DNA of 49,007 bases from Candidatus Methanomethylicia archaeon (GCA_029259155.1 JAPDJI010000021.1:1-49007); one strand, 5' to 3'; counted from the stretch's first letter, positions 1 through 20,018 are shown. Notes: a model not told the origin generated them from the sequence alone. Made by a program: numbers and translations.

Positions 1-58
1 AGGCCTCGTAGACCATCCTAGAAAGCTCTTCAGCTAGGGCTAAGCAGGGCTTAGCCAT
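1..58 (-). CDS. 5' end of a gene running off the window edge (MAKPCLALAEELSRMVYEA...), next in the cob operon; function unknown
   Basis: ATG at 58-56 overlaps the cobY stop region and is preceded by GAAGTGGGG; the frame is open to base 1. Confidence 0.55.
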   Translation of the reverse strand, partial: MAKPCLALAEELSRMVYEA

Positions 59-678
59 GGATAGGCCCCACTTCATTAATCAGCCTCTCAGCTAGCTGTA
101 GGTCCTTGAGGGTGTTGATGTTGACCGCCACCTCGACCCTTCTGAGGACCAGGAGCTCCTCGTCGATCCACTCCTCGTCGATCAGCGAGGCGTCTAGTAC
201 GTTAATCCCTGAGGGGGCCACCATCAACCCCTCGGCTTCAAACACGTAGCTTGGCCTTATTCCAAGCGCTTCATAGACCTCGTAGGGGGCCACGACGGCC
301 AAGGAAGGCCTGCTGCAATGCGTAAAATAATACCTAACTATATGATCTATGAGCAGCCCGCTCAATAATGGCAGGTCGCAAGCGACTACGAGCACGGGTC
401 CCTCGAGCCTTAGCGCCTTTACGGCGTATCGTAGATCCTCAATGTATCCCTCGCCGGGCGACTAAGGCCTCCGCTCTAAGCCCCCTCGCGACTTCATAAG
501 TGTTGGGCGTGTGCCTCGACGCCACGACTACTACTCTCTCCACGTAGCGGGCCTGCTTAAGGGCCTCCACCACGTAGTTGATTAAAGGCCTGCCAGCGAT
601 CTTTACTAGCGGCTTCTCAACGCCTAAACCTAAGCGAGTGCCTCGGCCTCCAGCCATTAATAAAGCTGGGAGGCGCAT
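51..678 (-). pseudogene. cobY: GTP:adenosylcobinamide-phosphate guanylyltransferase (archaeal CobY), split by a frameshift between 462 and 439 (pseudogene or assembly indel)
   Basis: ORF 439-678 has MAGGRGTRL...EKPL; the +1 frame continues SPGEGYIEDL...VVACDLPLL...NINTLKDL into ORF 51-395; lies directly downstream of cobS. Confidence 0.85.
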
Positions 679-1437
679 CTACAGAACCCTCCCGGCGACC
701 ACTATCGTAGTCAACGACGCTGCGCGCGCCATCTCATTTAGGGCCCCAAACACGTCCCCAGTTACCCCGCCAAGTAGGTTGTGAGAAGCCCTAGCCACGA
801 TTAGCGTCAAGGCCATTGCACTTAGCACAGCTAAGAGCCCTTTCAGGAACATAAGCCACCAGGCTAGCCCGAGGCATGAAGCTATGGACACCGTGAGGCG
901 CGTGGGCCACCCAGGGCTTCTCGCAGCTTTCACGAAGCTAGCACCCATCCCTGGATAGGCGGGTTTTTCAAGGCTCGCCAACAGCACCATCGACAGCTTA
1001 GCTGCGGCCTCCGACGACGCTAAGCTACGTAGAAGCTCCTGTCGAGGGAGCTCTGAGACGCAGGCTATGGACAGTAGGACTATGAGAAGGGCTAGCATGA
1101 AGCCTCCAACTCCAACTTGGACGTCCTTCATGGCCTTAACCCTCTCCTCCGGGGGCCCATGGGCCATCAACCCGTCCCCTAGGTCCATGAGGCCGTCTAG
1201 GTGGTTGAGGCCTGTGATCGCCAGTATCAAGCCTATAGCTACAACCCCTGTGAAGAGGCCTGGGACTACTTCAGCTACCAGCTGAGCTACGGCGCCCGCC
1301 AACGATCCTATGAAGGCGCCGATTAAGGGAAACCAGTACATGCCCAGCGCTGCGTCGACGAGGCCTCCTTCACTAGGCTTAAGCGGTACCACCGTCAGGA
1401 AGGTCAACGCTGCCCTCAGCTCCCTGAGGAGCTTCAA
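679..1437 (-). CDS. cobS: adenosylcobinamide-GDP ribazoletransferase (cobamide synthase)
   Basis: Polytopic membrane protein with FLT, TGLNHLDGLMDLGDG, MKD..VGVGG and GGVTGDVFGA motifs. Confidence 0.95.
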   Translation of the reverse strand: MKLLRELRAALTFLTVVPLKPSEGGLVDAALGMYWFPLIGAFIGSLAGAVAQLVAEVVPGLFTGVVAIGLILAITGLNHLDGLMDLGDGLMAHGPPEERVKAMKDVQVGVGGFMLALLIVLLSIACVSELPRQELLRSLASSEAAAKLSMVLLASLEKPAYPGMGASFVKAARSPGWPTRLTVSIASCLGLAWWLMFLKGLLAVLSAMALTLIVARASHNLLGGVTGDVFGALNEMARAASLTTIVVAGRVL

Positions 1438-2594
1438 GGCTTCCTAGACCTCCGCTTAGCTAAGAGCCTCGAGTACATGTTCGAGGAGGAGCCTGCGATG
1501 AGCCCTCCGATGACGTCGTCCATGAATGGCCCCAGCCGCTTCAAGACGCCGGGCTTAGCCTTATCGAACCTAACGAACTCGAATAGCCCCTTAGTGCCAG
1601 CGATGTACTTGGCTATCTCCATGCCCAAGATTTCATCCGCCAGCAGCGAGACAGGGTCCTCCTTGAAGGCCTCGGCAGTCAGCCCAGGTATCAAGCCCTC
1701 CTCCCCGTCTTCTTGAAGCCTTAAGCCCGCTAGGACTAGGGACGCTACGTTAATGTCCTCCAAGGCCTCCAATAGGCATTCACGTAGGACCTCCACCACT
1801 TCCTCCCTGCTGCCCATGTCTGGGTGGTAGACTAGAGGCTCTAGAGCAGCGTCTAATAGGTCGTCGAAGGTTATACCGCGTTCTTCAAGGCGTTTAATTA
1901 AGGGCCTAATGGGTAAAAGGCCTTCATGCTTCACGACGGCCTCCTTGACGCCCTCCAGCACCCCCAGGCTTACCAGCCTTCCAAGCTCAGTAGCTAGCCC
2001 AGCGTAAGCGACCCGTTCGCCCCTACGCGTACACGCTACGACAATGGAGTCCGTCGAGGTACATGTGGCTGGCCTGCCTGATGCCCGACTCCTAACATCG
2101 AGCCTCCTAAAGGCCTCAGCCTTGGCCTCAGCCACTACTCTAACGAGCTCCACGAGGCAGGGGTCCTCGACGGCTCCGTCGACGAGCAGGATGATGTTGA
2201 CGGTGCCCACCGCCTTCACGTCTACTGAGTCCAGGATCGACACGGCGTTGGAGAGCCCCGCGGTCACGAACACGTCCACAGCGATGGCGCCGCACTTAAG
2301 CCCTCTATGGGAGGCCTTGTTGACGGCGGCGGCCGTCATTAAGCCCACGACGGGCCTAGGCAGCTGGAGGCTATGTGCCACCTGTTCAAGGTAGGCGGCT
2401 GGGTTGGGCTCGTTGAAGCCGCTCGGTACTTGATGGTTGAGTATCGACCTAGCCCTACGTAGGCCGCCGTTGAGCAAGGCCGAGCTCAACGCCTTTAGTG
2501 GGCGGCTGGACTCCACGACTAAGTTGCCTCCGTCCACGTAGCATCGAACCCCTTGACACGAAGGGTTGAACTCCACCCTCGCCCACCTCCTCAA
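1434..2594 (-). CDS. cbiS: bifunctional adenosylcobinamide amidohydrolase (CbiZ) / alpha-ribazole-phosphate phosphatase (CobZ) fusion, CbiS-like
   Basis: N-half has LSSALLNGG, GLMTAA, GTVNII, EAK and ATCTSTD (CbiZ); C-half has DINVASL, DPVSLLADEILG, IAGTKGLFEFVRFDKAKPG and GPFMDD (CobZ/PgpA-like). Confidence 0.9.
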   Translation of the reverse strand: MRRWARVEFNPSCQGVRCYVDGGNLVVESSRPLKALSSALLNGGLRRARSILNHQVPSGFNEPNPAAYLEQVAHSLQLPRPVVGLMTAAAVNKASHRGLKCGAIAVDVFVTAGLSNAVSILDSVDVKAVGTVNIILLVDGAVEDPCLVELVRVVAEAKAEAFRRLDVRSRASGRPATCTSTDSIVVACTRRGERVAYAGLATELGRLVSLGVLEGVKEAVVKHEGLLPIRPLIKRLEERGITFDDLLDAALEPLVYHPDMGSREEVVEVLRECLLEALEDINVASLVLAGLRLQEDGEEGLIPGLTAEAFKEDPVSLLADEILGMEIAKYIAGTKGLFEFVRFDKAKPGVLKRLGPFMDDVIGGLIAGSSSNMYSRLLAKRRSRKP

Positions 2595-3559
2595 AGAAGC
2601 GTTAAGCCCAGGGCACTGCCCAGGGCCGTTAGAGGCACCACGGCCAGGGCGATGAAGAGGGCCACGGTAAGCTTCATTAAGCGCAGGGCGGCCCTAACGT
2701 GGCTTATCGACAGCTCCTCTAAGCCGTCGCCGAGCGTGTAGAAGCCTGGCTTCTCGAGCTGGACGCGTAGGGCTCCAGCCATAGCCGACAGAGGCCACCC
2801 TGAGTTTAAGCTGTCGGTCCTTCCCCGATCCCTCCTCAAGACCCTTAAAGCCCTCCTCCAGTCCATGCCGGCAAGCCACGCCGCGCACACCATTAAGCAC
2901 CCGGTAACCCTGGCGGGTACGTAGTTAGCCAAGCTATCGAGCTTAGCCGCAGCCCAGCCGAGGTGGGTGAAGGGAGGGTGCCTATAGCCGACCATGGAGT
3001 CTAGGGTGTTGATCACGCGGTAGGCCAAGGCTCCTAGGAAGCCTAGGAGGGCGAAGTAGAGGAGAGGTGAGGTGACTCCGTCCACGGTGTTCTCGCCTAT
3101 GGACTCGACCGAAGCTGAGATCAGCTGGCTCCTCGAGAGCCTCCTCGTATCCCTGCTAACTATCCGCGAAACGAAAAGCCTAGCGGCTTCAAGGTCTCCG
3201 TTAGCCATGGATTCCACGATCGGCTCGACGTGTTGCTCCATGGACTTTATCGCGAAGGTCGTCTTGAGCAGGGCCGCCACTAAGAACAGGTATATGAACG
3301 TGGGCAGGGCTGTGCTTAGGAGGCGTAGCGCTAGGTAGAAGGTCGAGGTGAACAGGGCGAGGGACGAGGTGACGAGCAAGAAGCCTCCCAGCCTCCCCCT
3401 AACCCTACGCTCAAGGAACAGGACGTAGCGCCCAACCCAGACCGTTGGGTGAAGCTTCGAGGGAGGTTCCCCAAGGAGTAGGTCGAGGGACAGGGCTGTA
3501 AGCAGCACCGTGAGCTTAACCAACACCGGGCTCAACCAGACAATCAAGGTTTCACTCAC
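2591..3559 (-). CDS. cbiB: adenosylcobinamide-phosphate synthase
   Basis: DLLLGEP..HP, IVSRDT, ESIGENTVDG, YRVINTLDSMVGY, NYVPAR and NSGWP motifs. Confidence 0.95.
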   Translation of the reverse strand: MSETLIVWLSPVLVKLTVLLTALSLDLLLGEPPSKLHPTVWVGRYVLFLERRVRGRLGGFLLVTSSLALFTSTFYLALRLLSTALPTFIYLFLVAALLKTTFAIKSMEQHVEPIVESMANGDLEAARLFVSRIVSRDTRRLSRSQLISASVESIGENTVDGVTSPLLYFALLGFLGALAYRVINTLDSMVGYRHPPFTHLGWAAAKLDSLANYVPARVTGCLMVCAAWLAGMDWRRALRVLRRDRGRTDSLNSGWPLSAMAGALRVQLEKPGFYTLGDGLEELSISHVRAALRLMKLTVALFIALAVVPLTALGSALGLTLL

Positions 3560-4691
3560 CGAGCACGGCTACCAGGGCCCTCAAAAGCGCCTCGTTCTCT
3601 AAGCGCCTTCGAACGGCCACCCTGATGTAACTTCTGCCCAGCCCCCTGAACGAGCTACAGTCCCTAACTAAGATCCCGCGCTTCATTAGATCGGCCTTCA
3701 ATGTGGTCGACGTCTTGCCCGTGCCTCCAACGTCGACCAAGAAGAAGTTGGCCTTGGTGGGGAAGGCCCAGACCCCGCTGAGCCTCCTAAACCTCTCGTA
3801 GACGTAGCGCCTCTCCCTCGCCACGAGCGACTTCACTCGCTCTAGGTACCTTCGATCCCTCAGGGCCTCGACCGCCGCCGCCTGGGCTAGGACGCTCACG
3901 CTCCAAGGGGTCTTGACCCTAGACATCAGCCCGGCCACCTCCTCAGAGGCCACCGCGTAGCCTATCCTCAGCCCTGGCATCCCGAAGGGCTTGGTGATGG
4001 ACCTCAACACGAGGAGGTTCGAGTAGCTGTTGACGAGGTCGACCAGAGAGGCTGGCTCGTCGACAAACTCGACGTAGCTTTCGTCGATCAGCACCAAGGC
4101 GCCTGCCTCGTGGGCTTCACGTACTATCTTAAGTAGGGCCTCGCGTGGCGCTAGGTAGCCCGTAGGGTTGTTGGGATTGCATAGGAAGATTGCCTTCGTC
4201 CTCCTGCTCAAGCTCTGCAGCACGGCCTCAGGGTCGAGCGAGAACCCCTGCTCCTGCTTAAGCATGAGGGGCTTGACCAGGCCCCCCATCTTGGCTACGC
4301 ACACCTCGTACTCGCTGAAGGTAGGGCATGGGATGAGTGCTTCATCCCCCTCCTCCACGAACGTGAGCGCAAACAAGTGGATTAGCTCGGTCGAGCCGCA
4401 GCCCACGATCACATTGTCTGGGCCTACGCTTCCTAGGTACTCCGCTACGGCCTCCTTGACCGCTCTACACTGAGGGTCAGGGTAGAGGTTGAGGAGGTTC
4501 AAGGATTCTTTAATGGCTCTCAGGGCTCGAGGTGGGGGACCTAGAGGGCTGACGTTCGAGCTGAAGTCCACGACCTCCACGCCTAGGCTTAGCGCCTCGC
4601 CTCCATGGACGCCCGGCCTAAGCCTAAGAACCACCCTCCTCGCTGAACGAAGGGGCAGCCCTCCTTTGTCACGCATTGAGGCTGAGTCCAT
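3552..4691 (-). CDS. cobD: L-threonine-O-3-phosphate decarboxylase (PLP-dependent, HisC-like)
   Basis: VHGG, DFSSNVSPLG, NPNNPTG, DESY and RSITKPFGMPGLRIGY motifs; start placed at the ATG at 4691 behind GGAGGAGG rather than at 4775. Confidence 0.9.
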   Translation of the reverse strand: MDSASMRDKGGLPLRSARRVVLRLRPGVHGGEALSLGVEVVDFSSNVSPLGPPPRALRAIKESLNLLNLYPDPQCRAVKEAVAEYLGSVGPDNVIVGCGSTELIHLFALTFVEEGDEALIPCPTFSEYEVCVAKMGGLVKPLMLKQEQGFSLDPEAVLQSLSRRTKAIFLCNPNNPTGYLAPREALLKIVREAHEAGALVLIDESYVEFVDEPASLVDLVNSYSNLLVLRSITKPFGMPGLRIGYAVASEEVAGLMSRVKTPWSVSVLAQAAAVEALRDRRYLERVKSLVARERRYVYERFRRLSGVWAFPTKANFFLVDVGGTGKTSTTLKADLMKRGILVRDCSSFRGLGRSYIRVAVRRRLENEALLRALVAVLGE

Positions 4692-4744: not shown

Positions 4745-4762
4745 GTAGGAAATATTTCCTAT
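4745..4762. promoter_or_regulatory. candidate operator upstream of the cobD-cbiB-cbiS-cobS-cobY operon
   Basis: GTAGGAAATATTTCCTAT, containing a perfect 16-bp palindrome at 4746-4761; resembles the sites at 7509 and 11568. Confidence 0.65.
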
Positions 4763-4847
4763 ATCTTCGGCGCACTAATATCGCTTGCGCTCCGCCATCA
4801 ACGCAAGCTGGTTAGCTCAACACGCGGCTGCGTCGGGGAGGGCCTCC

Positions 4848-5534
4848 CTAGACCCCCTCAGCGTGCTGCAGTATGCTCATCAACGCGGCGCACCCATAGG
4901 CTCCGCGGCTCACGACCTCGACGACCGCGTACCTGTAGCTTGAGTGTAGTAGCGGTGAAGAGTTGACTAGCGTATGGTACTCGCCTCCCTCGCCGAGCGG
5001 GTCCCACCCCTCCTCCTCGCACACCTCGAGGAACCACTCCAAGTTGTCTTTGGACACCTCGACGCCTAGCAGGTCGGCTCTAGATGTGGACTTAACAGCG
5101 ACCACCGTGAAGCCCACTCCGTCCTCAACCATCTTCCTCAAGAGGGGCCTAGTGGGGTGCTTGAAAAGGGGCTCGAGCAGATCCACGCCTACGCGCCTAC
5201 ACGCCTTCTCGTGCCACTCTAGGTGTTCCTCGAGGAGCACGTCGCCAGCTACTAAGGTCTCAGCCCCAAGCTCCTCGAGCTTCTCCGCGAGAGCCTCGTT
5301 CTCGCGGCCGCTCCTCAACTCAACGACCTCTAGGGGGAGGCCCATGTCCTCGGCGAGCGCCGCTACGGCGTGCGCGTTGAGCTCGTGGGGACTGGGCTGC
5401 TGGAAGGAGGGTCTCACGAATAGGAGGGCGTCGACGTCGACCCCAAGCTCCTTGGCTTTCATGATCGAGTACATTGAGTCCTTGCCTCCGCTAAAGAGAG
5501 CCACGGTGGCCACCGCGCTTTCCACCGCCCTCAA
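4848..5534 (-). CDS. DUF71/COG2102 (diphthine-ammonia ligase-like) PP-loop ATP pyrophosphatase, probable B12-salvage subgroup
   Basis: FSGGKDS PP-loop, AGDV, EPLF and DPLGEGGEYHTLV; located inside the cob cluster. Confidence 0.85.
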   Translation of the reverse strand: MRAVESAVATVALFSGGKDSMYSIMKAKELGVDVDALLFVRPSFQQPSPHELNAHAVAALAEDMGLPLEVVELRSGRENEALAEKLEELGAETLVAGDVLLEEHLEWHEKACRRVGVDLLEPLFKHPTRPLLRKMVEDGVGFTVVAVKSTSRADLLGVEVSKDNLEWFLEVCEEEGWDPLGEGGEYHTLVNSSPLLHSSYRYAVVEVVSRGAYGCAALMSILQHAEGV

Positions 5535-5536
5535 CT

Positions 5537-6304
5537 CTAGACCCTCGGGTAGAGGTTGAGGACCTCACCCACCACGGGCAGGCCGCTGTGGATGTAGGAG
5601 ACGTTGTCTAGGTGCCTCCTAGCCAACGATGCCGCCTCCACGACCTCTTCAGGGGTGGCGGAGCGCCACGGCTGTCCAGGGACCCTGACGTAGCCGTCTA
5701 CCCTGAAAGGTATGGAGCGGTCGACTGACGCTATGAACTTGGAGATGCGTTCGATCTCCTCGATGTCTATGAGCCCCGGTATGAGCACGCTCTCGGCCCT
5801 AACCTTCACGCCGATCTTAGCGGCGCGCCTAAAGTTCCTCAGGACCCTCTCGTTGGGTCTTCTCGTGTAGTATCTGTGAAGCCGGGGGTCCAGGGCCTTG
5901 AGGCTTATGCAGACCTCGTCCAGCCCAGACTCCTTGAGCGCCTCGATAGTCTTCTCGTCCAGTAGGTACCCGTTGGTCAGTAGGACTGTGTAGACCCCCC
6001 GTTCCTTGAAGAGCCTCACCACGTAGGGCAGCGACCTATCTAGGGTTGGCTCTCCACCACCCAAGACGACGCGCTCAACCTTCAAGTCCTCGATCAAGCG
6101 GCTGAGCTCGCTTAGCGATAGAGTGGAGCTTGGTGAAAGCTTGCTTAGCTTAAGCTGCGTCTCCACGGGGATGTGGCAGTCCCAAGGCGAGAGCTTTAAT
6201 ATACACCCTCGGCATTGGAAGTTGCAGCCCTTGAAGAACAAGTAGGCCAAGAGGTCGTGGAAGAAGAACACGAGGTGATATATCCTCGTCTTCACGGCGA
6301 ACAC
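5537..6304 (-). CDS. radical SAM protein (PflA/COG1180-like core); true start may be the GTG at 6295
   Basis: GCNFQCRGC, GGGEPTL, LTNG and LIPGLID motifs; 2 bp from the DUF71 gene. Confidence 0.88.
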   Translation of the reverse strand: MFAVKTRIYHLVFFFHDLLAYLFFKGCNFQCRGCILKLSPWDCHIPVETQLKLSKLSPSSTLSLSELSRLIEDLKVERVVLGGGEPTLDRSLPYVVRLFKERGVYTVLLTNGYLLDEKTIEALKESGLDEVCISLKALDPRLHRYYTRRPNERVLRNFRRAAKIGVKVRAESVLIPGLIDIEEIERISKFIASVDRSIPFRVDGYVRVPGQPWRSATPEEVVEAASLARRHLDNVSYIHSGLPVVGEVLNLYPRV

Positions 6305-6484
6305 CGAGGAGCCTCTGCACTTTTCCTACCACCATTCAGGTAGGCCGATAAAAGTATTGCCTCGAGCGCCTACTCCTTGCGCCTAGCCCTCTAATGAGTT
6401 GCACATCGATAGGTACTTCCCCCGGTGCGCTTGAGTGCGGCAGCAGCCCCCAACAAGTTTGTAAGCGTGTAAGCCGTAAAGGAC

Positions 6485-7348
6485 TTGATGCAGAGGAGAG
6501 TACCCTTCATCACTTTCTGTACTAGGCCGGCGAGAAAGGCTTGGATCAACTTAGCTGGCTGCAACTTTGACTGTAGAGGATGCTTTGCGCTGGCTAAGGA
6601 GGACGTGGGCAGGGCGTTCTCGGTCGCCGAGCTAGTAAGCTTCTTCGTCGAAGCGTGCCTCTACATTTACGGGTGCCTCGTCGACGACGTAGTGATAACG
6701 GGCGGTGAGCCCACCTTAAACCCCGCCTACTTGGTAAGCTTAATCGAGCGTTTGCGGAAGGCGGGCGTGTCGAGGATCTCACTGTCAACTAACGGCCACC
6801 TCTTGGACGAGGCCCTCGTCAGGCAGTTGAAGGTCCTGGGCGTAGGCCCGGTTAAGCTGGATATAAAGGCGTTCAGCGAGGACATACACTACTGGTATAC
6901 GGGGAGGAGCAATAGGAATGTGTTGAGGGCTGCGAAGCTGCTCTACGACTACAGCGTGGACTTCTACGCCCGGACGATACTCATGCCTGGCATCGTGGAC
7001 GTAGACGAGGTGGAGAAGATAGCCAAGTTCCTGTCGTCCATAAGCCCGGAAATACCCTACCGAATATACGAATTCGACCCCTCTCACGCAAGGCAGCCCG
7101 TGGCTAGGAAGCCGACCCTTGAGGAGATGGCTAGTGCCTTCGAGGCGTCTAAAAAGTACTTGGTCCACGTCGAGTCCATCCCCGCCTCCATCGCGTACGA
7201 CTCTAACTACGAATACGTTGAGGTGCGCGACGACATGCTCCTAGATCGATTCAACAAGATCGACGAGGTCTCGAAGCGATCAATCAAGGGCTGGAAGATG
7301 AGGGGCATCCCCTTCAGTGAGGTCTTTTCAAGGCGGGGACGTGGCTGA
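6485..7348 (+). CDS. radical SAM protein (PflA/COG1180-like core), paralog of the divergent gene
   Basis: GCNFDCRGC, TGGEPTL, STNG, DIKA, YTGRSN and LMPGIVD motifs. Confidence 0.88.
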   Translation: MMQRRVPFITFCTRPARKAWINLAGCNFDCRGCFALAKEDVGRAFSVAELVSFFVEACLYIYGCLVDDVVITGGEPTLNPAYLVSLIERLRKAGVSRISLSTNGHLLDEALVRQLKVLGVGPVKLDIKAFSEDIHYWYTGRSNRNVLRAAKLLYDYSVDFYARTILMPGIVDVDEVEKIAKFLSSISPEIPYRIYEFDPSHARQPVARKPTLEEMASAFEASKKYLVHVESIPASIAYDSNYEYVEVRDDMLLDRFNKIDEVSKRSIKGWKMRGIPFSEVFSRRGRG

Positions 7349-7475
7349 CGTTCACGGAGTCGACGATGCTTAAGCCCTCGTAGTTCAGGCGGTCCGCAAC
7401 TCCGCTAAGCCGCTCTTTAATAGCGGCACTACTTCCTAGGGGCACTGCTCGCAAGCTAACTGCTATAGTGCTCAT
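7314..7475 (-). pseudogene. possible truncated remnant of an MTH1187/YkoF (thiamine-binding, DUF77)-like gene
   Basis: MSTIAVSLRAVPLGSSAAIKERLSGVADRLNYEGLS resembles the family N-terminus (xxAxxSVVPLGT...SGL); only 53 codons. Confidence 0.25.
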
Positions 7476-7495
7476 GGTTTTAAAGCACGCCTCAG

Positions 7496-7526
7496 AAAAG
7501 TTAATTAAGCAGGATAAATATCCCAC
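7496..7526 (+). promoter_or_regulatory. btuFCD promoter (BRE AAAAG, TATA TTAATTAA 7501-7508) with candidate operator at 7509-7526
   Basis: GCAGGATAAATATCCCAC lies directly between the TATA box and the start codon; 15/18 identical to the cobT site. Confidence 0.65.
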
Positions 7527-7528
7527 TC

Positions 7529-9046
7529 TTGATGCCTATGAATAAGTTAAATGCCATAGGGTTGCTTGTGGTATTGGCTGCGTTCGTGGCGTCGAGCCTA
7601 GCGTGCTCAATGATGGCTGCTCCTAGCTCGTCTAACGAGTTCCCGGTGACGATCGTCGACGACTTTGGTAGGCAGGTCACCATTGATAGAGAGCCACAGT
7701 GCATCATTTGTCAAGGGCCGAGCTGCACTGAGATCGTCTACGCCCTGGGCGCCCTCGACAAGGTCGTTGCCGTGGACCCCTACTCAGACTACCCACCTGA
7801 GGTCGCCGAGAAGCCGAAGATTGGGGCCTCAGGCCTAGGCTACATTAAGCTCTCAGCTTCGGCCGAGGACTTTGAGACGCTGGACCCAGACTTGATCATC
7901 ACGTACTCTTACGTTGAGGAGAGCGAGGCCGACGACACCATACTCCCGCGACTGGAGGCCCTCGGCCTCAAGGTGATAGTGCTCAGGCCCCTCACCTTGG
8001 AGGATGTCCTGTCCAACATCGAGCTCGTCGGGAAGGCCTTGGGGAGGGAGAGCGAGGCCTCAACGCTGGTCCAAGACCTCAGGGTCAGGATGGAGATGAT
8101 AGAGGAGAGGGTGGCGGACGTCACTTATAGGCCGAAGGTGTATATAGAGTCTTGGTACCCGCCGCCGTGGACCTTTGGGCCCGGTACTTGGGGCCATCAG
8201 CTCATCGAGATGGCTGGTGGGGCCAACGCTTTCGGCGATGCCCAGGTGCAGTGGGTCAGGACCAGCGACGAGGAGGTCATTGAGAGGGACCCCGACGTAA
8301 TCGTAAGCCTGCGGGGGGCTATGCATCAAGCCACCTTGGAGGACTTTAGAGCTAGGCCTGGCTGGGGCCAAGTGAGGGCTGTCCAGCAGGGCTCGGTTTA
8401 CGTGGTGGACGAGAACTTGTTCCTTAGGCCTGGCCCGAGGCTGATTGAGGGCCTAGAGGTCTTGGCGGGTATCCTCCACCCTGAGATCTTCGGGAGTGTC
8501 GAGGTGGTGGCGACTGACGTAGACGTGGACGCCGTCAATAGAGGACTGGCTCAGACGCTGTCCGGTGTCGCTGAGTCCTTTAACTTCACCCTGCTAGTGA
8601 CGGAGGCTGCAGCTCCCAGCAACTTTACGCTGAAGACCACCGTAATTAAGGTGGGCCCCAGCCCTCCGCAAGGTCTCAGGGCGGTCGGCGCCTACTTAAA
8701 CATCCACACTAGCATCTCAGGCGTTGCCTTGAGGATGCTCGCGGTCATCAGCTACGACGAGGCTGAGGTAGGGAGGCTAGGAGTGAGTGAAGAGACGCTG
8801 GCGGTCTATAGATGGGATGGCGGAGAGTGGGTTGAGGTGCCGAGTGCCGCGATGGTCGATGAGGACCTGGTGGTCGCAGTGGTCAACCATACAAGCTACC
8901 TAGCCTTAATGGGGATGCCCAGCCCTCCACCGCCTCCACTAATATCGACTCCCATACCGCTCTGGCAGGCGTTAATGGTGGGTGTCGCGGCAGCAGTTGC
9001 CCTGGGCCTGGTGGGCTTCGCGTTAGGGCGTAGGAGGCGGAGGTAG
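7529..9046 (+). CDS. btuF: cobalamin ABC transporter substrate-binding protein with an extra C-terminal surface domain and PIP-CTERM-like membrane anchor
   Basis: Signal peptide, FPVTIVDDFGRQV, TEIVYALG and RPGPRLIEGLE; about 180 extra residues ending PPPPP..PIP-TM-RRRRR. Confidence 0.88.
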   Translation: MMPMNKLNAIGLLVVLAAFVASSLACSMMAAPSSSNEFPVTIVDDFGRQVTIDREPQCIICQGPSCTEIVYALGALDKVVAVDPYSDYPPEVAEKPKIGASGLGYIKLSASAEDFETLDPDLIITYSYVEESEADDTILPRLEALGLKVIVLRPLTLEDVLSNIELVGKALGRESEASTLVQDLRVRMEMIEERVADVTYRPKVYIESWYPPPWTFGPGTWGHQLIEMAGGANAFGDAQVQWVRTSDEEVIERDPDVIVSLRGAMHQATLEDFRARPGWGQVRAVQQGSVYVVDENLFLRPGPRLIEGLEVLAGILHPEIFGSVEVVATDVDVDAVNRGLAQTLSGVAESFNFTLLVTEAAAPSNFTLKTTVIKVGPSPPQGLRAVGAYLNIHTSISGVALRMLAVISYDEAEVGRLGVSEETLAVYRWDGGEWVEVPSAAMVDEDLVVAVVNHTSYLALMGMPSPPPPPLISTPIPLWQALMVGVAAAVALGLVGFALGRRRRR

Positions 9047-9056
9047 CTGGGGTTTA

Positions 9057-10133
9057 ATGGTTGAGGAGCGCGTGGATCTAAGCAGGGCTGCGAGATGGAG
9101 CCTTACGATCCTCACCCTCACCCTCATCTTATTTACTTGCTCCGCGTTCTCCATAAGCGTAGGAAGCGTCGAGACCTCCGTGGCCGACGCAGCTGGAATA
9201 CTGCTTGGACAGGTCCCGGGCTTTAAGCAAGTCTTCGGGGCTTGGTGGAGCGAGACTCAGGAAGTGGTCGTAGTTCAGCTTAGGCTGCCTAGGCTTGTAT
9301 CCGCCGTGCTAACGGGGGTGGCCTTAGCGACCTCAGGCGCAGTCTTTCAAGGGATGTTTAGGAACCCGCTGGCCGACCCCTACGTCCTCGGCGTGGCCTC
9401 AGGGGCTGGGCTTGGAGGGGTCGCTGCTACGCTACTTAGCCCCAGTCTCCTGCCCATGAGCGTCGTCTACGCCAGGCCCCTCATGGCTTCAACGACCGCC
9501 ATCCTAACGATCCTCATCGTCTACGCAGTAGCGAGGACTGGAGGAAGGGTGCCTGTGCTGAGGCTCGTCCTAGCTGGGGTGGCCGTAAGTAGCTTGATGT
9601 CCGCGTTGACCATGCACCTCCTGTTCTTCGCTGGAGAGAGGGGGCACATTGCCTTAGCATGGCTCTTCGGCTCCTTCGCGATGGTCGAGGGTAGGTGGGA
9701 CTACGTGGAGATGGCTGCGCCGCTCATATTGACGTGCTCGGCGCTAATGTTCCTCTTCTCGAGGGACCTCAACGTCTTAGCGATGGGTGAGGAACAGGCT
9801 AAGCACTTAGGAGTCGAGGTCGAGTCGGTCAAGAAGGCCTTATTGGCCCTGGCTTCAATAGCCACGGCGGCCGCCGTGGCTATAAGCGGTGTTATCGGCT
9901 TCGTGGGCCTGATAGTCCCCCACGCGATGCGTTTAATAGTTGGCCCAGACCACCGCATACTCCTCCCTTCATCAACCTTAGCTGGCGCAACGCTACTGGT
10001 TGCCTGCGACACTTTGATCAGGGCCAGGGTCATCGCCCCCGCTAGCGAACTACCAGTGGGGACCATTACTGCGATGATGGGCTGCCCCTTCTTCCTGTAC
10101 CTCCTAGTTAAGAGCAGGAGGGTGGTTGCGTAG
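9057..10133 (+). CDS. btuC: cobalamin/iron-chelate ABC transporter permease (FecCD family)
   Basis: LRLPR, QGMFRNPLADPYVLGVASGA, IGFVGLIVPH and ELPVG motifs. Confidence 0.92.
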   Translation: MVEERVDLSRAARWSLTILTLTLILFTCSAFSISVGSVETSVADAAGILLGQVPGFKQVFGAWWSETQEVVVVQLRLPRLVSAVLTGVALATSGAVFQGMFRNPLADPYVLGVASGAGLGGVAATLLSPSLLPMSVVYARPLMASTTAILTILIVYAVARTGGRVPVLRLVLAGVAVSSLMSALTMHLLFFAGERGHIALAWLFGSFAMVEGRWDYVEMAAPLILTCSALMFLFSRDLNVLAMGEEQAKHLGVEVESVKKALLALASIATAAAVAISGVIGFVGLIVPHAMRLIVGPDHRILLPSSTLAGATLLVACDTLIRARVIAPASELPVGTITAMMGCPFFLYLLVKSRRVVA

Positions 10134-10136
10134 ACG

Positions 10137-11465
10137 ATGTCGGGGAGAGCCGTGATTAAGGTGCGCGGCGTCGAGTTCGCGTACGACTCCGTGAAGGCCT
10201 TGGACGGGGTAAGCTTAACGGTCGACAGAGGGGAGTTCCTAGGCCTCCTAGGCCCCAACGGCTCAGGGAAGACTACGTTCCTTAGGTGCCTCACGGGGGT
10301 TTTGAAGCCCAAGGTAGGTGTCGTCCTATTGGACGGTCGAGAGGTGTCGTCCATGAAGGCGGTCGACGTCGCTAGGAAGGTAGCCGTCGTCCCCCAGCAC
10401 ACGGCCACAACCTTCGACTTCACGGCCCTCGACGTAGTGATGATGGGCAGGCACCCTCATTTAGGTAGGTTGAGGAGGGAGTCTGGGAGGGACCTGGAGG
10501 TTGTCCGAAGATCCATGGAGCTCGCTGGGGTGCTGCATCTAGCTGATAGGCCCATTAACGAGTTGAGCGGCGGGGAGAGGCAGAGGGTGTTCATAGCTAG
10601 GGCGCTAGCGCAGGAGCCCAAGATCCTGCTCCTCGATGAGCCCACTACGCACCTAGACTTAAACCACCAGCTCGAGATCATGGACTTGCTCGAGAGACTA
10701 CGCGTAGATCAGGGGCTTACGGTCGTCGCGGTTCTACACGACCTCAACTTAGCTGCTAGGTACTGCGACCGCTTGGTCCTAATGAGCCACGGTAGGATAA
10801 GGGCCTTGGGACCTGTCGAGGAAGTGCTTAGGAGTGAGGTCATCGAGGAGGTCTATGGCGTCGAGGTCGAGGTAAGGAAGCACCCAGCGACAGGGTCGCT
10901 ATACATAGTGCCACTGTACACCGTGAGGAGTCGCAGGGCCTCGGGCGTTAGGGCAAGGATCCACGTGATATGCGGCGGGGGCACAGGCGCCTCGATCATA
11001 AGGAGGTTGGTGAACGAAGGCTTCGAGGTGAGTGTGGGAGTGGTGAGTGTCCTCGACAGCGATTATGAGGCAGCTAGGGCGTTAAAGGTGGAGGTGGTGG
11101 CTGAGGCCCCCTTCTCGCCGATCAGCGACGAGGCCTTTGCTAGGGGCCTTGAAGCAGCCCTGAAGGCAGACCTAGTGCTGGTAACGGACGCGCCTTACGG
11201 GCGCGGCAACCTGAAGAACCTCGAGATAGCATTGGAGGCTGCTCGCCGAGGCGTTAAGGTAGGCCTGCTCCTCGACCGTGAGGACTTCCCAGCGACGAGG
11301 GACTTCACGGGCGGAGAGGCCACGAAGCTCCTTGAGGAGGTGCTTGAGAGCGTTAGCGCTTTTACAGCCAGCACCCTGGAGGACTTGATGAGGGCCCTAG
11401 AGGCTTCGAGAGGGGAGGCGTGCACTAAGCTTAGACCTCAACTCTCTACTAAAACCTCTCCTTAA
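10137..11465 (+). CDS. btuD: cobalamin ABC transporter ATP-binding protein with a C-terminal extension
   Basis: GPNGSGKT, LSGGERQR, LLDEP and LHDLN motifs; about 170-aa tail starting IHVICGGGTG. Confidence 0.9.
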   Translation: MSGRAVIKVRGVEFAYDSVKALDGVSLTVDRGEFLGLLGPNGSGKTTFLRCLTGVLKPKVGVVLLDGREVSSMKAVDVARKVAVVPQHTATTFDFTALDVVMMGRHPHLGRLRRESGRDLEVVRRSMELAGVLHLADRPINELSGGERQRVFIARALAQEPKILLLDEPTTHLDLNHQLEIMDLLERLRVDQGLTVVAVLHDLNLAARYCDRLVLMSHGRIRALGPVEEVLRSEVIEEVYGVEVEVRKHPATGSLYIVPLYTVRSRRASGVRARIHVICGGGTGASIIRRLVNEGFEVSVGVVSVLDSDYEAARALKVEVVAEAPFSPISDEAFARGLEAALKADLVLVTDAPYGRGNLKNLEIALEAARRGVKVGLLLDREDFPATRDFTGGEATKLLEEVLESVSAFTASTLEDLMRALEASRGEACTKLRPQLSTKTSP

Positions 11466-11550
11466 CTGAGCGGGGCGGTAGACACCATAGCTGCGACAGC
11501 GTAGGCTTCGAAGCGAGGACGCGTGAGCTTAGTGCTGAGTTGTTAAGCAT

Positions 11551-11585
11551 AAAGGCTAAATAGGGCAGTAGGATAAATAGCCTAC
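11551..11585 (+). promoter_or_regulatory. cobT promoter (AAAGG-CTAAATAG) with candidate operator at 11568-11585
   Basis: GTAGGATAAATAGCCTAC lies between the TATA-like box and the TTG start at 11590. Confidence 0.65.
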
Positions 11586-11589
11586 CACC

Positions 11590-12708
11590 TTGAGGAAGCT
11601 CGAGGACTTCGACGTAGCCCTGATCTACAGGGAAGATAAGGGTGAAAGGTTCCTGCGCAGCTTGATCGGTAAGAGGTACCTGTTCGTCTGCGTCGCAGGT
11701 AGCACTGAGACAAGCCTCATCGAGGGGATCACGGTAGCGGGCGCATCACCTCGATTAACGCTTTATACACCTGCAGCTGACGTTGAGTACCTGCTCCTGG
11801 GGCGATGCAGGTGCATAGAGTCTATCCCCATCACCCCTGAGGGCGTACCCACGCCCGCTCTAATAACGAGGGCTGCGCTGAGGCTGGCTGACGCACCCGC
11901 CCTCGTGGTTGATGGAGGATCCTACGTCGAGCCTGGCGTGCCCCACGTGGACGTTGGAGGGAGCCCAAGCCGCGACATCAGGACGGGTTCGGCCATGGAC
12001 TACGATAGAGCCCTCGAGTCCTATAGGAGGAGCGTGGCCTTAGGCCGCGAGCTTTCCAAGCTCTGCGACTACTTAGTAGTCGGCGAGAGCATACCGGCTG
12101 GGACGACGACGGCCCTCGCCGTGTTGATGGCCTTAGGCGTTGACGCCAAGAACAAGGTTAGCAGCGCCATGCCGAACAACCCTCACGGCCTAAAGGCTAG
12201 GGTGGCCGAGGAGGCGTTGATGAAGGCCGGCCTCGCCCCCGGCTCCTTCAGCGACCCCCTTGAGGTGGTGTCGAGGGTGGGCGACCCCATGATGCCTAGC
12301 TTCGCTGGTCTTGTAGTGGGGGCTGTCGATAGTGTCCCCGTAATCATGGCTGGGGGCACCCAGATGGCTGCTATAGCCGCTGTAATTAAGTCATTGAGGG
12401 AGGACGCGCTGGACAACGTCATCGTAGGCACGACGAGGTGGATCGTTGAAGACGGGTCGTCTGACATAAGGGGGTTAATCAGCCAAGTGGCTGAGGTGCC
12501 GATTGCTGCAGCTGTCCTCGACTTCTCTAAGTCGTCCATTGAGGGGTTGAGGTTCTATGAGAGGGGTTACGTGAAGGAGGGCGTTGGGGCAGGTGGCTCC
12601 TCGGTGGCAGCCATGATCGCAAGCGGAGGTCGTGTGGACTCCTCTAGGATCCTTAGTAAGGTTGAGGCGGACTATGTCTCGCTTAAGGCTAAGGGCTATG
12701 TGGAGTGA
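11590..12708 (+). CDS. cobT: archaeal-type nicotinate-mononucleotide:base phosphoribosyltransferase (MJ1598/TIGR00303 family)
   Basis: GITVAG, TPAADVEYL, PTPALIT, GESIPAGTTTA, AGGTQM and YERGYVKEGVGAGG motifs. Confidence 0.92.
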   Translation: MRKLEDFDVALIYREDKGERFLRSLIGKRYLFVCVAGSTETSLIEGITVAGASPRLTLYTPAADVEYLLLGRCRCIESIPITPEGVPTPALITRAALRLADAPALVVDGGSYVEPGVPHVDVGGSPSRDIRTGSAMDYDRALESYRRSVALGRELSKLCDYLVVGESIPAGTTTALAVLMALGVDAKNKVSSAMPNNPHGLKARVAEEALMKAGLAPGSFSDPLEVVSRVGDPMMPSFAGLVVGAVDSVPVIMAGGTQMAAIAAVIKSLREDALDNVIVGTTRWIVEDGSSDIRGLISQVAEVPIAAAVLDFSKSSIEGLRFYERGYVKEGVGAGGSSVAAMIASGGRVDSSRILSKVEADYVSLKAKGYVE

Positions 12709-19499: not shown

Positions 19500-20018
19500 A
19501 TGAAAATCAATGAAAGAGAACGCTTAGAATGGGCATATAGAGAGTGGCGCGAAGGAAAGAGAAGTTTACGGCAGCTCGAGAAGGAACTTGGAATATCAAG
19601 GTCTAAGCTTAGTCGAGAATTTAAGAAAATGGAGGAAGGACGGAGACCGAGGGATAAAGGGGAGCTTTACGCAACCGCTTTCAAGTATATAGAGAACATT
19701 GTGGATACCGAAGGAGGAGCTATCAGGGAATCGGTAGTGTTAGGGCTGATCAAGGAGTTTAAGGTTACTCCTGAGACCGCTGAGGACATTGTTAGTTGGT
19801 ACTGTAAGCTTCAAGGAAGAGCCAGAGCTAAGAGCTGTGCCCACGCAAATGTCGTAGAAGCTCCTCACGGTCTCGTGGTTTACTGCAAACTTAAACATGT
19901 CGGTGGCGGCGAGGCTGGAGGTGAACCTAGGTACTATGAGGCGATTAACGAAGAGAACTGTGCTCTCTGTGCCTTCTATGAGAGAGCGCCAATAAAGAGC
20001 GTTAGACACCGCCTCTAA
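19500..20018 (+). CDS. hypothetical protein with an N-terminal HTH and a C-terminal Cys/His putative Zn site
   Basis: SLRQLEKELGISRSKLSR; CAH...YC...CALC; GAGG ribosome-binding site. Confidence 0.75.
   Translation: MKINERERLEWAYREWREGKRSLRQLEKELGISRSKLSREFKKMEEGRRPRDKGELYATAFKYIENIVDTEGGAIRESVVLGLIKEFKVTPETAEDIVSWYCKLQGRARAKSCAHANVVEAPHGLVVYCKLKHVGGGEAGGEPRYYEAINEENCALCAFYERAPIKSVRHRL

Follow-up and report, generated by a model that had tools for sequence, protein, structure and literature searches.

A conserved DNA signal was found at four cobamide-gene promoters of a Candidatus Methanomethylicia archaeon (genome G000) and at orthologous promoters in four relatives (G001-G004). Three of the sites, each an 18-bp palindrome, lie in the window, the 49,007-nucleotide stretch of DNA that was analysed. 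They are most likely docking sites for a DNA-binding protein that would fill the role of the bacterial B12 riboswitch, and the signal appears to be a genuine operator, belonging to a lineage-specific version of a system that has been predicted but not characterised. The explanation favoured here, with moderate confidence, is that the palindromes are operators of a cobamide uptake and salvage regulon and are read by a dimeric protein of contig C35, a PH0730 homologue made of a winged helix-turn-helix (wHTH) and a DUF4443 domain.

Sites, promoters and genes of the window

Features are listed with their coordinates in Table 1. Positions 4746-4761 inside the cobD site form a perfect 16-bp palindrome. 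By count, the btuF and cobT sites are identical at 15/18 positions, and the cobD and cobT sites at 13/18. At btuF the site stands immediately 3' of the TATA-like box, and at cobT the two are separated by a 5-nt gap. The centre of the btuF TATA-like box is about 26 nt 5' of the ATG, a distance that fits a leaderless transcript, judged by general knowledge of archaeal promoters. A distance of 53 nt separates the cobD site from its likely ATG, which has a Shine-Dalgarno-like run (GGAGGAGG) ahead of it; the site lies on the core promoter itself. A separate TATA box was looked for 5' of this site and none was found, the sole exception among 11 promoters in G000 and relatives. At the other ten (btuF, cobT and eight more), a TATA-like box ends 0-17 nt before the site, and the site ends 1-5 nt (7/10) or 13-19 nt (3/10) before the start codon.

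Table 1. Predicted operator sites, promoter elements and genes in the window.
Feature	Position	Strand	Context	Basis
Operator site 1, GTAGGAAATATTTCCTAT	4745..4762	.	5' of - strand cobD-cbiB-cbiZ/cobZ-cobS operon	sequence
Operator site 2, GCAGGATAAATATCCCAC	7509..7526	.	5 nt 5' of btuF ATG 7532	sequence
Operator site 3, GTAGGATAAATAGCCTAC	11568..11585	.	4 nt 5' of cobT TTG 11590	sequence
Decayed site, right half TTTTCCTAC only	6312..6329	.	full palindrome GTAGGATTTTTTTCCTAC at equivalent place in G001	
BRE/TATA-like element, AAAAGTTAATTAA	7496..7508	+	btuF promoter	inferred from sequence
BRE/TATA-like element, AAAGGCTAAATA	11551..11562	+	cobT promoter	inferred from sequence
Salvage operon	679..4691	-		Pfam, NCBIfam
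cobD-type aminotransferase/decarboxylase	3552-4691	-		Pfam; NCBIfam CobD, HisC
cbiB	2591-3559	-		Pfam
cbiZ-cobZ fusion	1434-2594	-		Pfam; NCBIfam CbiS, CobZ
cobS	679-1437	-		Pfam
cobY (NTP_transf_3-like)	51..678	-	split over two frames, 439-678 and 51-395	
Dph6-like ATP pyrophosphatase	4848-5534	-		Pfam
Radical SAM	5537-6304	-		Pfam; trio has NCBIfam TTX_0299-like, below cut-off
Radical SAM	6485-7348	+		Pfam; trio has NCBIfam TTX_0299-like, below cut-off
btuF-btuC-btuD	7532..11465	+	corrinoid ABC uptake	Pfam; NCBIfam BtuF-like below cut-off
btuF (Peripla_BP_2)	7529-9046 (ORF call)	+		Pfam
btuC (FecCD)	9057-10133	+		Pfam
btuD (ABC ATPase)	10137-11465	+		Pfam
cobT, archaeal-type, nicotinate mononucleotide-dependent phosphoribosyltransferase	11590..12708	+		TIGR00303, Pfam DBI_PRT

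The cobT product scored 388.8 bits against TIGR00303 (cut-off 240). NCBIfam scores on the salvage operon were 231 bits for CbiS (cut-off 250), 148 for CobZ (152.5), 281.6 for CobD (290.55) and 291.7 for HisC (276.55). The split of cobY comes from a frameshift or from an error in assembly; its G001 orthologue is intact (L074:1822-2448). The trio of Dph6-like and two radical SAM genes (4848..7348) also accompanies the cobamide clusters of G001 and contig C29.

An earlier, sequence-only reading of this DNA had reported the three 18-mers with these positions, the 16-bp core and the pairwise identities, and had placed the btuF and cobT sites between TATA-like box and start codon; all of this was reproduced, and its gene names were upheld by Pfam and NCBIfam.

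Conservation and the candidate regulator

In same-family and same-order genomes (G001-G004), the palindrome (consensus GTAGGATAAATATCCTAC) was found on the orthologous promoters of btuF, the salvage operon, the ECF-S gene and cobA. Four of the five G001 loci (pattern, at most one mismatch) lie directly 5' of cobamide genes, namely the rSAM-dph6like-cobD-cbiB-cbiZ-cobS-cobY operon, btuF, the ECF-S gene and cobA, and G002 and G003 have one site each, ahead of ECF-S/DUF4430. The btuF site reads GTAGGATATTTATCCTAC in G001 and GTAGGATAATTATCCTAC in G004. The salvage-operon site of G001 stands one gene pair further 5' than in G000, ahead of the radical SAM gene that leads the operon, at the position of the decayed G000 site. 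Counting against the favoured explanation, membership of the regulon is uneven, the rSAM site of G000 being decayed and its cobA promoter having no site, unlike that of G001. The fourth G000 site (GTAGGATATGATTCCTAT, C19:454) is outside the window, 5' of the genes for an ECF S-component (PF07155/PF12822) and a DUF4430 protein. It comes after a TTAAATA box and is preceded by AAAAGGCTTAAATA, a near-copy of the cobT TATA-like element.

The likely reader of the palindromes is the C35 protein (217 aa), encoded outside the window, which matched PF14544 at 96.7-98.6 bits and the Pfam wHTH models PH0730-like_N and CggR_N. Overlaid on CggR bound to its operator, the wHTH of the structure model (pLDDT 92.2) fits the DNA-binding domain with an rmsd of 1.2 Å over 69 columns (29% identity). 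A second G000 copy, on C11, is interrupted by four stops. In G001-G003 the DUF4443 gene and ECF-S/DUF4430 point away from each other on either side of the palindrome. Three other families, with six genomes (G023, G031, G035, G033, G025 and G027), have the DUF4443 gene just 3' of ECF-S and DUF4430-sized ORFs, with GTAGGCAAAATTGCCTAT 0-67 nt ahead of ECF-S; the identity of ECF-S and DUF4430 was confirmed by Pfam in G023, G029 and G015, and loci L119 and L120 show the ECF-S/DUF4430/DUF4443 gene row behind GTAGGCAAAATTGCCTAT. In G000 the C35 factor gene and the C19 ECF-S gene are both at contig ends, so their adjacency is not demonstrable there. Pfam and Foldseek found no B12-binding fold or motif (CarH/MerR-B12 type, PF02310) in the C35 protein.

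Two other families of the same class carry a differently spaced palindrome, GGATGGATAATCCATCC, present in 7/10 genomes of f3 and 12/12 of f5 vs 0/3 of f1 and 0/1 of f2. In G016 it gave 8+8 matches vs 0+0 in the control, and at least 15 of 23 GGATGGATAATCCATCC sites flank cobT, cobY, cbiB, btuF, ECF-S/DUF4430, cobN, cbiC, cbiM or mtaB. Operator type tracks residue 63 of the recognition helix, which is Thr in 12/12 DUF4443 proteins of f3 and f5 and Ala, Ser or Gly in the 14/14 others. In the wider set, it is Ser or Gly at 3/3 loci with a GTAGG-type site and Thr at 21/23 loci with a GGAT-W-ATCC core; the correlation follows the protein's own phylogeny, so these are not independent events. Contig C29 of G000 holds a second salvage cluster with the GGATGGATAATCCATCC operator type, and, as a point against the favoured explanation, no intact Thr-type factor was found in G000. 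The operator of this lineage (GGAT-N4-ATCC inside GTAGG...CCTAC) appears to derive from the GGATGGAT-A-ATCCATCC operator, which is the more widespread of the two.

The foremost alternative, itself unlikely, is that the operators are real and read by a different transcription factor, with DUF4443 no more than a passenger that is co-regulated at the ECF-S/DUF4430 locus. It draws on the presence of the wHTH-DUF4443 protein in 36/41 genomes of the class (29/29 of those of good quality) regardless of cob gene content; being near-universal, its presence or absence is uninformative. A wider set of 80 DUF4443 loci from many archaeal phyla speaks both ways: in favour of DUF4443 as the reader, DUF4430, ECF-S, BtuF, BtuC or CobY was found within 3 kb at 29, and against it, no B12 neighbour was detected with the HMMs used at 51. 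The C-terminal domain also has no recognised corrinoid-binding fold: Foldseek gave no known B12-binding or CbiX-like fold, its best matches outside the family being insertion domains of AspRS (E about 1e-3), and Pfam gave only the wHTH models and DUF4443. Against a different reader, however, no other DNA-binding gene recurred in the site neighbourhoods examined, the DUF4443 gene itself lies in palindrome-led operons in several phyla, its wHTH is close to the domain of an operator-bound regulator, and residue 63 shifts with operator type.

At the ten promoters with a TATA-like box, the 18-bp site would cover the expected transcription start, and a protein bound to it would leave that box open to TBP/TFB while shutting out RNA polymerase. 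Given this placement, the factor is most likely a repressor, and the logic of the regulon would have it active when corrinoid is plentiful. Binding of DUF4443 to the sites, its dimeric state, repression and a corrinoid effector are all four what we infer. Ranked next, and also improbable, is that DUF4443 binds but responds to something other than a complete cobamide (cobalt or cobinamide, for example, or else a precursor of the lower ligand or a partner apo-protein), or that it activates. The DUF4443 fold hints at no ligand, and in relatives the regulon takes in cbiM (cobalt uptake), cobN and cbiC; in the family of G000, however, it consists of uptake and salvage of complete or incomplete corrinoids, and the TATA-to-start position is, by general knowledge, typical of archaeal repressors.

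Chance, core promoters and RNA

The pattern RYAGGAWAWRWWKCCYAY with at most one mismatch gave 8 forward and 2 reverse matches in G000 and 0+0 in a reversed-pattern control. The zero-mismatch loci were four, the three window sites and C19:454. A position weight matrix trained solely on 8 sites from four genomes other than G000 was used to scan the 1.55-Mb G000, where it ranked the cobT site 1 (24.7 bits), btuF 2 (22.2 bits), ECF-S 4 and cobD 6 (17.2 bits). The highest scores in 5 mononucleotide shuffles (16.7-23.2 bits) overlap those of single sites (17-25 bits), so significance rests on the location and conservation of the sites and not on their scores. Judged in this way, the palindromes stand above chance. 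As a point against the favoured explanation, two high-scoring sites are intragenic (C21:5193 and C10:9346), and the second is kept at 18/18 positions in G001.

That the likeness reflects a shared AT-rich TATA/BRE core promoter with chance flanks and no dedicated regulator is very improbable. The site centres are indeed AT-rich, the cobD site may double as a TATA box, and shuffled genomes reach 17-23 bits; but 10/11 promoters have a TATA-like box of their own ahead of the site, the conserved part is the GC-containing arms GTAGG/CCTAC, and cobamide promoters hold 4/6 of the best G000 matches as well as 4/5 of the G001 pattern loci.

No Rfam family matched the window at the gathering threshold, and RF00174 gave 0 matches among 84 scored candidates in G000; as a positive control, it was found in 7/14 named genomes, those seven being bacteria. 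That the palindromes form hairpins in the transcribed RNA, working as a small switch or terminator, is the least probable reading and scarcely credible, since the cobD site does fold at -10 kcal/mol (z = -3.1) but the other two fold unremarkably (z = -1.4 and -1.3) and are 5' of any likely transcript start because the start codon is only 3-6 nt away, the sites occur in both orientations and in divergent promoters, and the Rfam and RF00174 searches were negative.

The sequence-only reading had likewise seen no cobalamin riboswitch, and the window and genome searches agree. It had not found the full motif in intergenic regions outside the cob island; the C19 ECF-S promoter site is such an occurrence. 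The genome scan placed the motif above background, with the best genome-wide matches on cobamide promoters, and it was kept 5' of orthologues in genomes of the same family and of the same order. A co-occurring regulator with a B12-binding or CbiX-like domain had been envisaged: a candidate regulator was found in the wHTH-DUF4443 protein, cis-linked in relatives, whereas the domain was not. A B12 regulon that is independent of riboswitches and operated by a protein, its dimeric factor being encoded outside the window, is thus supported, and the C35 factor would supply corrinoid sensing, binding and repression.

Comparison with known systems

Rodionov, Vitreschak, Mironov and Gelfand reportedly predicted, in J Biol Chem in 2003, a 'CBL-box' in some archaea as the binding signal of a hypothetical B12 regulator, and are said to have left that regulator unnamed. 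A literature search for 'CBL-box' or 'hypothetical B12 regulator' gave no match. Both signals lie 5' of cobalamin biosynthesis or transport genes in archaea without B12 riboswitches and are presumed sites of a protein regulator; the likeness drawn here is one of concept. To this the present work adds wHTH-DUF4443 as a candidate, along with two operators that differ in spacing.

The archaeal repressors MDR1, Phr, LrpA and TrmB bind just 3' of the TATA box and block recruitment of RNA polymerase. Like them, the proposed system would have a dimeric wHTH protein and a palindromic operator placed between TATA box and transcription start, but their effector domains and regulons are unrelated, and the DUF4443 mechanism is suggested by position only. 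Among homologues of the candidate, only PH0730 of Pyrococcus horikoshii has a solved structure (PDB 2P8T), with the same wHTH and DUF4443 layout (phmmer E 2.7e-12, 27% identity; Foldseek E 1.2e-11, TM 0.67/0.77). It is a structural-genomics 'hypothetical protein', and entry 2P8T gives no function, ligand or DNA site. The single paper found on the PH0730 family gives, in the portion available, the family name only, among P. furiosus wHTH families. The N-terminal wHTH of the candidate also matches Pfam CggR_N of the central glycolytic genes regulator CggR (PDB 7OYK, 8R3G), whose C-terminal domain is, however, of the sugar-phosphate-binding SorC type, whereas DUF4443 is a different domain of roughly 100 residues.

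With bacterial RF00174 regulons the system has in common the targets btuFCD, ECF-type uptake, cobT, cbiB, cobS and cobA, and a presumed shut-off at plentiful cofactor. RF00174 acts as RNA, within the 5' leader, whereas here a DNA palindrome stands upstream of the start and the mRNAs are seemingly leaderless. If the proposed explanation is true, the DUF4443 factor would be the protein counterpart of the bacterial B12 riboswitch.

Predicted operators and promoters of the cobamide island

The three 18-mers upstream of cobD, btuF and cobT were read exactly where the sequence-only reading had placed them. Recounting gave the same identities, 15/18 between the btuF and cobT sites and 13/18 between the cobD and cobT sites, and the same perfect 16-bp core of the cobD site. 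The surrounding genes were named from Pfam and NCBIfam profile matches and form a predicted cobamide salvage and uptake island. Coordinates are collected in the table, with those of features on other contigs of the same genome (G000). A frameshift or an assembly error splits the window cobY into two frames.

Operators, genes and other features in the window and on further contigs of G000
Feature	Position	Strand	Basis or remark
Site 1, GTAGGAAATATTTCCTAT	4745-4762		cobD promoter
Site 2, GCAGGATAAATATCCCAC	7509-7526		btuF promoter
Site 3, GTAGGATAAATAGCCTAC	11568-11585		cobT promoter
cobY (NTP_transf_3-type)	51-678	-	two frames, 439-678 and 51-395
cobS	679-1437	-	Pfam/NCBIfam
cbiZ-cobZ fusion	1434-2594	-	Pfam/NCBIfam
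cbiB	2591-3559	-	Pfam/NCBIfam
CobD/HisC-type aminotransferase	3552-4691	-	Pfam/NCBIfam; likely start ATG
Dph6-like ATP pyrophosphatase and radical SAM gene	within 4848-7348	-	Pfam/NCBIfam
Second radical SAM gene	within 4848-7348	+	Pfam/NCBIfam
Right half-site, TTTTCCTAC	6321-6329		before radical SAM gene
ORF divergent from btuF	7314-7526	-	no Pfam match
btuF-btuC-btuD	7532-11465	+	Pfam/NCBIfam
cobT, archaeal type	11590-12708	+	TIGR00303, 388.8 bits (cut-off 240)
172-aa ORF	19500-20018	+	no Pfam match
Fourth site, GTAGGATATGATTCCTAT	C19:454		ECF-S promoter
AT-rich stretch, about 340 nt	C19:1-340		may be an insertion
Intragenic match, GTAGGATACATAGCCTAT	C10:9346-9363 (L020)		3' end of ORF
Decayed DUF4443-like domain	C11:25031-25312	-	four in-frame stops
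Second salvage and uptake cluster	C29 (L019:1-12697)		
Second-type operator, GGATGGATTATCCATCC	C29:8500-8516		divergent cobT/btuF promoter

At btuF the box AAAAGTTAATTAA is directly adjoined by the site, which is followed by 5 nt and ATG; at cobT the order is AAAGGCTAAATA, 5 nt, site, 4 nt and TTG. Both match the proposed placement between a TATA-like box and the start codon. A TATA-like box ends 0-17 nt before the site at 10 of the 11 promoters read in G000 and in four other genomes of the class (G001-G004). At seven of those 10 the site ends 1-5 nt from the start codon (G000 btuF and cobT; ECF-S, the gene for an ECF-type S component, in G001, G002 and G003; G004 btuF; and G001 cobA, if its called ORF start holds). 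At the remaining three promoters, those of G001 btuF, the G001 salvage operon and G000 ECF-S on contig C19, the start codon lies 13-19 nt past the site. Because the TATA centre lies about 26 nt before the start codon, the transcripts, judged by the general spacing of archaeal promoters, look leaderless or short-leader, and the operator would cover the predicted start.

The cobD site is the exception. It lies 53 nt from the ATG, which is preceded by a run of GGAGGAGG, and its own AT-rich centre may be the TATA box. Its counterpart in G001 sits two genes further upstream, before the radical SAM gene, where G000 has the right half only. No site was found at G000 cobA, while G001 cobA has one. Regulon membership thus drifts between close relatives.

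The proposed independence from riboswitches held. No Rfam family reached its gathering score in the window, and the cobalamin riboswitch model RF00174 gave no match in the whole 1.55-Mb, 47-contig genome; the same model was detected in 7 bacterial controls. On RNA folding, two of the three window sites were unremarkable.

Recurrence and conservation of the motif

The pattern RYAGGAWAWRWWKCCYAY was found in G000 at up to one mismatch 8 times on the forward and 2 times on the reverse strand (reversed-pattern control, 0 and 0). Four loci match with zero mismatches: the three window sites and one at C19:454. The last shows that the motif also occurs outside the cob island; the sequence-only reading had found no full copy in other intergenic regions. 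The C19 site follows a TTAAATA box and precedes genes for an ECF-type S component (PF07155/PF12822) and a DUF4430 protein. By InterPro naming DUF4430 is a transcobalamin-like C-terminal domain. When the DUF4430 protein was compared with PDB sequences, matches reached E about 0.05 at best, so its link to cobalamin is drawn from that naming and from the co-regulation here.

The motif is kept upstream of orthologous genes in relatives. G001, of the same family, has five loci at up to one mismatch, four of them directly upstream of cobamide genes: the operon rSAM-dph6like-cobD-cbiB-cbiZ/cobZ-cobS-cobY-AsnSynthase-like, btuF, the ECF S-component gene and cobA/btuR. G002 and G003 each have the palindrome before ECF-S/DUF4430, and G004, from another family of the same order, has a perfect palindrome, GTAGGATAATTATCCTAC, before btuF. 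A PWM was trained on eight sites from G001-G004, none from G000, and scanned over G000. It ranked cobT 1st (24.7 bits), btuF 2nd (22.2), ECF-S 4th (18.0) and cobD 6th (17.2). Maxima in five mononucleotide shuffles of G000 were 16.7-23.2 bits, and matches of at least 14 bits numbered 11 in G000 versus 2-5 in the shuffles. By the whole-genome pattern and PWM scans the motif is not at background frequency; PWM scores alone are insufficient, and the claim is carried by site positions and conservation.

Two other high PWM scorers lie inside genes. The match at C21:5193 was taken as chance, being unconserved and in an unrelated 521-aa ORF. This ORF and the AMP-binding gene downstream of G001 cobA share 119/522 identical residues; they are not orthologous, and the motif is not conserved. 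The C10 match falls within the 3' end of an aspartyl-protease-like ORF; this ORF and a ChlI/VWA chelatase-subunit gene are convergent. All 18 bases of the match are kept in G001 (C9:30927-30944, L075), with about nine synonymous changes in the flanking codons over 54 nt, which could reflect a functional site inside the gene or coincidence.

A Dph6-like ATP pyrophosphatase gene (TTX_0299-like, below cut-off) and one or two radical SAM genes accompany the cobamide salvage clusters of the window, of C29 (L019:1479-2863) and of G001 (L074:6445-9566), where they are placed behind the operator. They are candidates for cobamide-related enzymes still lacking a gene assignment. An Asn-synthase-like gene is likewise recurrent, in C29, in G001 and in G006 (there behind the other operator).

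A candidate DUF4443 regulator

A dimeric, possibly corrinoid-sensing factor had been proposed; no regulator was found in the window, and a candidate is encoded on contig C35. On the far side of the palindrome from ECF-S, and divergent from it, G002 and G003 have a gene for a protein of about 215 aa that combines an N-terminal winged helix (matching Pfam CggR_N and PH0730-like_N) with DUF4443 at the C-terminus. In G001 the two genes are arranged alike, and GTAGGATTAGTATCCTGC lies between them. The one intact copy in G000 (217 aa, C35) adjoins an endonuclease III gene, as in G002. C35 ends 207 nt beyond the start of this gene, and 453 nt separate the ECF-S site from the start of C19; by synteny the gene and ECF-S are likely adjacent. 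The AT-rich stretch of C19 lies between the ECF-S operator and the position expected for DUF4443 from G002 and G003, and may be an insertion that broke the assembly. The decayed C-terminal domain on C11, beside sequence translating like a tRNA-type stretch, could be what is left of a second copy of the regulator, or of an integrated element.

The DUF4443 family was found in 36 of 41 genomes of the class (29/29 of those of good quality) and, among the controls, in Sulfolobus acidocaldarius. In six genomes from three other families (G023, G031, G035, G033, G025 and G027) it closely follows an ECF-S ORF and a DUF4430-sized ORF, and GTAGGCAAAATTGCCTAT lies 0-67 nt before the ECF-S ORF, as computed from match coordinates (ECF-S and DUF4430 were Pfam-confirmed in G023, G029 and G015). 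The same layout occurs at two loci titled Candidatus Culexmicrobium cathedralense and Candidatus Methanomethylicota. A wider set was retrieved with a 7-sequence alignment, with record titles including Nezhaarchaeales, Bathyarchaeia, Hadarchaeota, Nitrososphaeria, Aigarchaeota, Thermoplasmata and Aenigmatarchaeota. In this set 29 of 80 DUF4443 loci have DUF4430, ECF-S, BtuF, BtuC or CobY within 3 kb and the other 51 gave no match. The neighbour HMMs are narrow and were built from sequences of this analysis, so the 29 are a minimum and not a clean rate.

The AlphaFold model of the candidate (pLDDT 92.2, pTM 0.88) has one clear structural relative, PH0730 of Pyrococcus horikoshii (2P8T, 'hypothetical protein'). 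In the model, the winged helix superposes on the operator-bound domain of CggR, and the C-terminal domain shows a weak similarity to the bacterial AspRS insertion domain. A known B12-binding fold, which the sequence-only reading had suggested looking for, did not appear in the C-terminal domain on structure comparison; the effector is therefore inferred from the regulon. A corrinoid pocket might lie around the invariant R137-D138/G144/P161 patch or Cys82. Homodimer prediction for the C35 protein (score 0.00, mark 0.42) counts neither for nor against dimerisation.

Several other candidates were set aside. The ORF divergent from btuF, unconserved in G001 or elsewhere in the genome, was judged spurious. 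The 172-aa ORF of the window, 8 kb away from the cob island, has by eye an N-terminal HTH-like stretch and a Cys-rich C-terminus, and no link to the operators was seen. This ORF, C19:2634-3362 (winged-helix-like by eye), C29:11928-12299 and the 121-aa genes beside mtaB in G016 and G019 show no homology to other candidates and no recurrence at sites.

A second predicted operator type and the reach of the regulon

Upstream of cobT in families f5 and f3 of the class, GGATGGATAATCCATCC stands instead of the window motif. At up to two mismatches it was found 8+8 times in G016 and 5+8 in G019 (controls 0), and 3+3 in G008 and 3+5 in G006 (controls 0-1); G007 had no match. At least 15 of 23 such sites flank cobT, cobY, cbiB, btuF, ECF-S/DUF4430, cobN, cbiC, cbiM or mtaB; the remaining sites lie beside iPGM-like, Asn-synthase-like, radical SAM, URO-D-like, DUF6580 and glycosyltransferase-3 genes. 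In the mtaB-bearing G016 and G019 (L022, L032, L038) a GGATGGAT-type operator precedes mtaB (methanol:corrinoid methyltransferase) and a URO-D/MtaA-like gene, and the regulon there seems to cover corrinoid-dependent methyltransferases besides supply genes. Class-wide, the second type was found in 7/10 genomes of f3 and 12/12 of f5, and elsewhere in 0/3 (other f1), 0/1 (f2), 1/6 (f4), 0/2 (f6), 1/5 (f7) and 1/1 (f8). It precedes ECF-S/DUF4430(/DUF4443) at one Bathyarchaeia and one Nitrososphaeria locus, and many Hadarchaeota loci carry it.

Both types share a GGAT/ATCC core, spaced GGAT-N1-ATCC in the second and GGAT-N4-ATCC in the window. The type tracks the recognition helix of the candidate factor, which spans residues 58-70 of the model. 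At position 63, Thr is found in 12/12 proteins of f3 and f5 and Ala, Ser or Gly in 14/14 of f1, f2, f4, f6 and f7, a count that leaves out two wrong-strand ORFs and takes in f6 with no operator type assigned. In the wider set, Ser or Gly occurs at 3/3 loci whose site is strictly of the GTAGG type, and the 23 with a GGAT-W-ATCC core have Thr (21) or Lys (2); the other 54 have neither motif by strict rules. Family f3 is in the same order as f1 and f2, yet its helix and operator are as in f5, so the pairing follows the protein and not taxonomy; it is confounded by the protein's own descent.

The second cluster of G000, on C29, is complete and paralogous. On one strand it reads cobT-cbiZ-cobY-cobD-cobS-cbiB-rSAM, with btuFCD divergent and Dph6-like and Asn-synthase-like genes alongside; its cobY is intact, unlike that of the window. 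Its divergent cobT/btuF promoter carries the second operator type, and its cobT shares 58-64% identity with the cobT genes of f3 and 49% with that of the window. No intact Thr-type DUF4443 gene was found in G000 (94% complete, 2.6% contamination). The cluster may have been transferred, its operator may be cross-recognised by the resident factor, a gene may be missing, or the contig may be mis-binned.

Taken together, the DUF4443/PH0730 family could be the long-missing corrinoid-responsive archaeal repressors, from Nezhaarchaeales-like Thermoproteota to Hadarchaeota, Bathyarchaeia, Nitrososphaeria and Asgard archaea, a protein counterpart of the bacterial B12 riboswitch. Specificity would have switched in this lineage, from GGAT-N1-ATCC to GGAT-N4-ATCC jointly with residue 63 from Thr to Ala, Ser or Gly. 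Because one genome carries both operator types, the C29 cluster, if horizontally acquired, may have escaped the resident regulator or may depend on it through cross-talk. We give this joint reading slightly less than an even chance. Rodionov and colleagues reportedly identified, in J Biol Chem in 2003, a 'CBL-box' for a hypothetical B12 regulator in some archaea. Our literature searches for 'CBL-box' or 'hypothetical B12 regulator' in archaea returned nothing, and those on DUF4443 no functional study. For PH0730, the text available to us held no functional study and gave the family name in a table only; on archaeal cobalamin regulons, titles and abstracts held haloarchaeal TrmB work and nothing on this system or on an archaeal protein regulator. 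We regard the window element as this lineage's version of a type of system that has been predicted but not yet characterised. New are its changed spacing, the helix change that goes with it, and the presence of both operator types in a single genome.

Since the 2003 prediction, the means by which archaea regulate the uptake and salvage of B12 in the absence of riboswitches has stayed in question. The window offers a clean, bench-testable case, with three operators, simple promoter geometry, a named candidate protein with a solved homologue, and a natural specificity variant whose spacing and helix residue can be swapped. If the regulator assignment is right, cobamide regulons could become predictable across uncultured archaea, with consequences for understanding which members of hot-spring and sediment communities make, scavenge and share B12.
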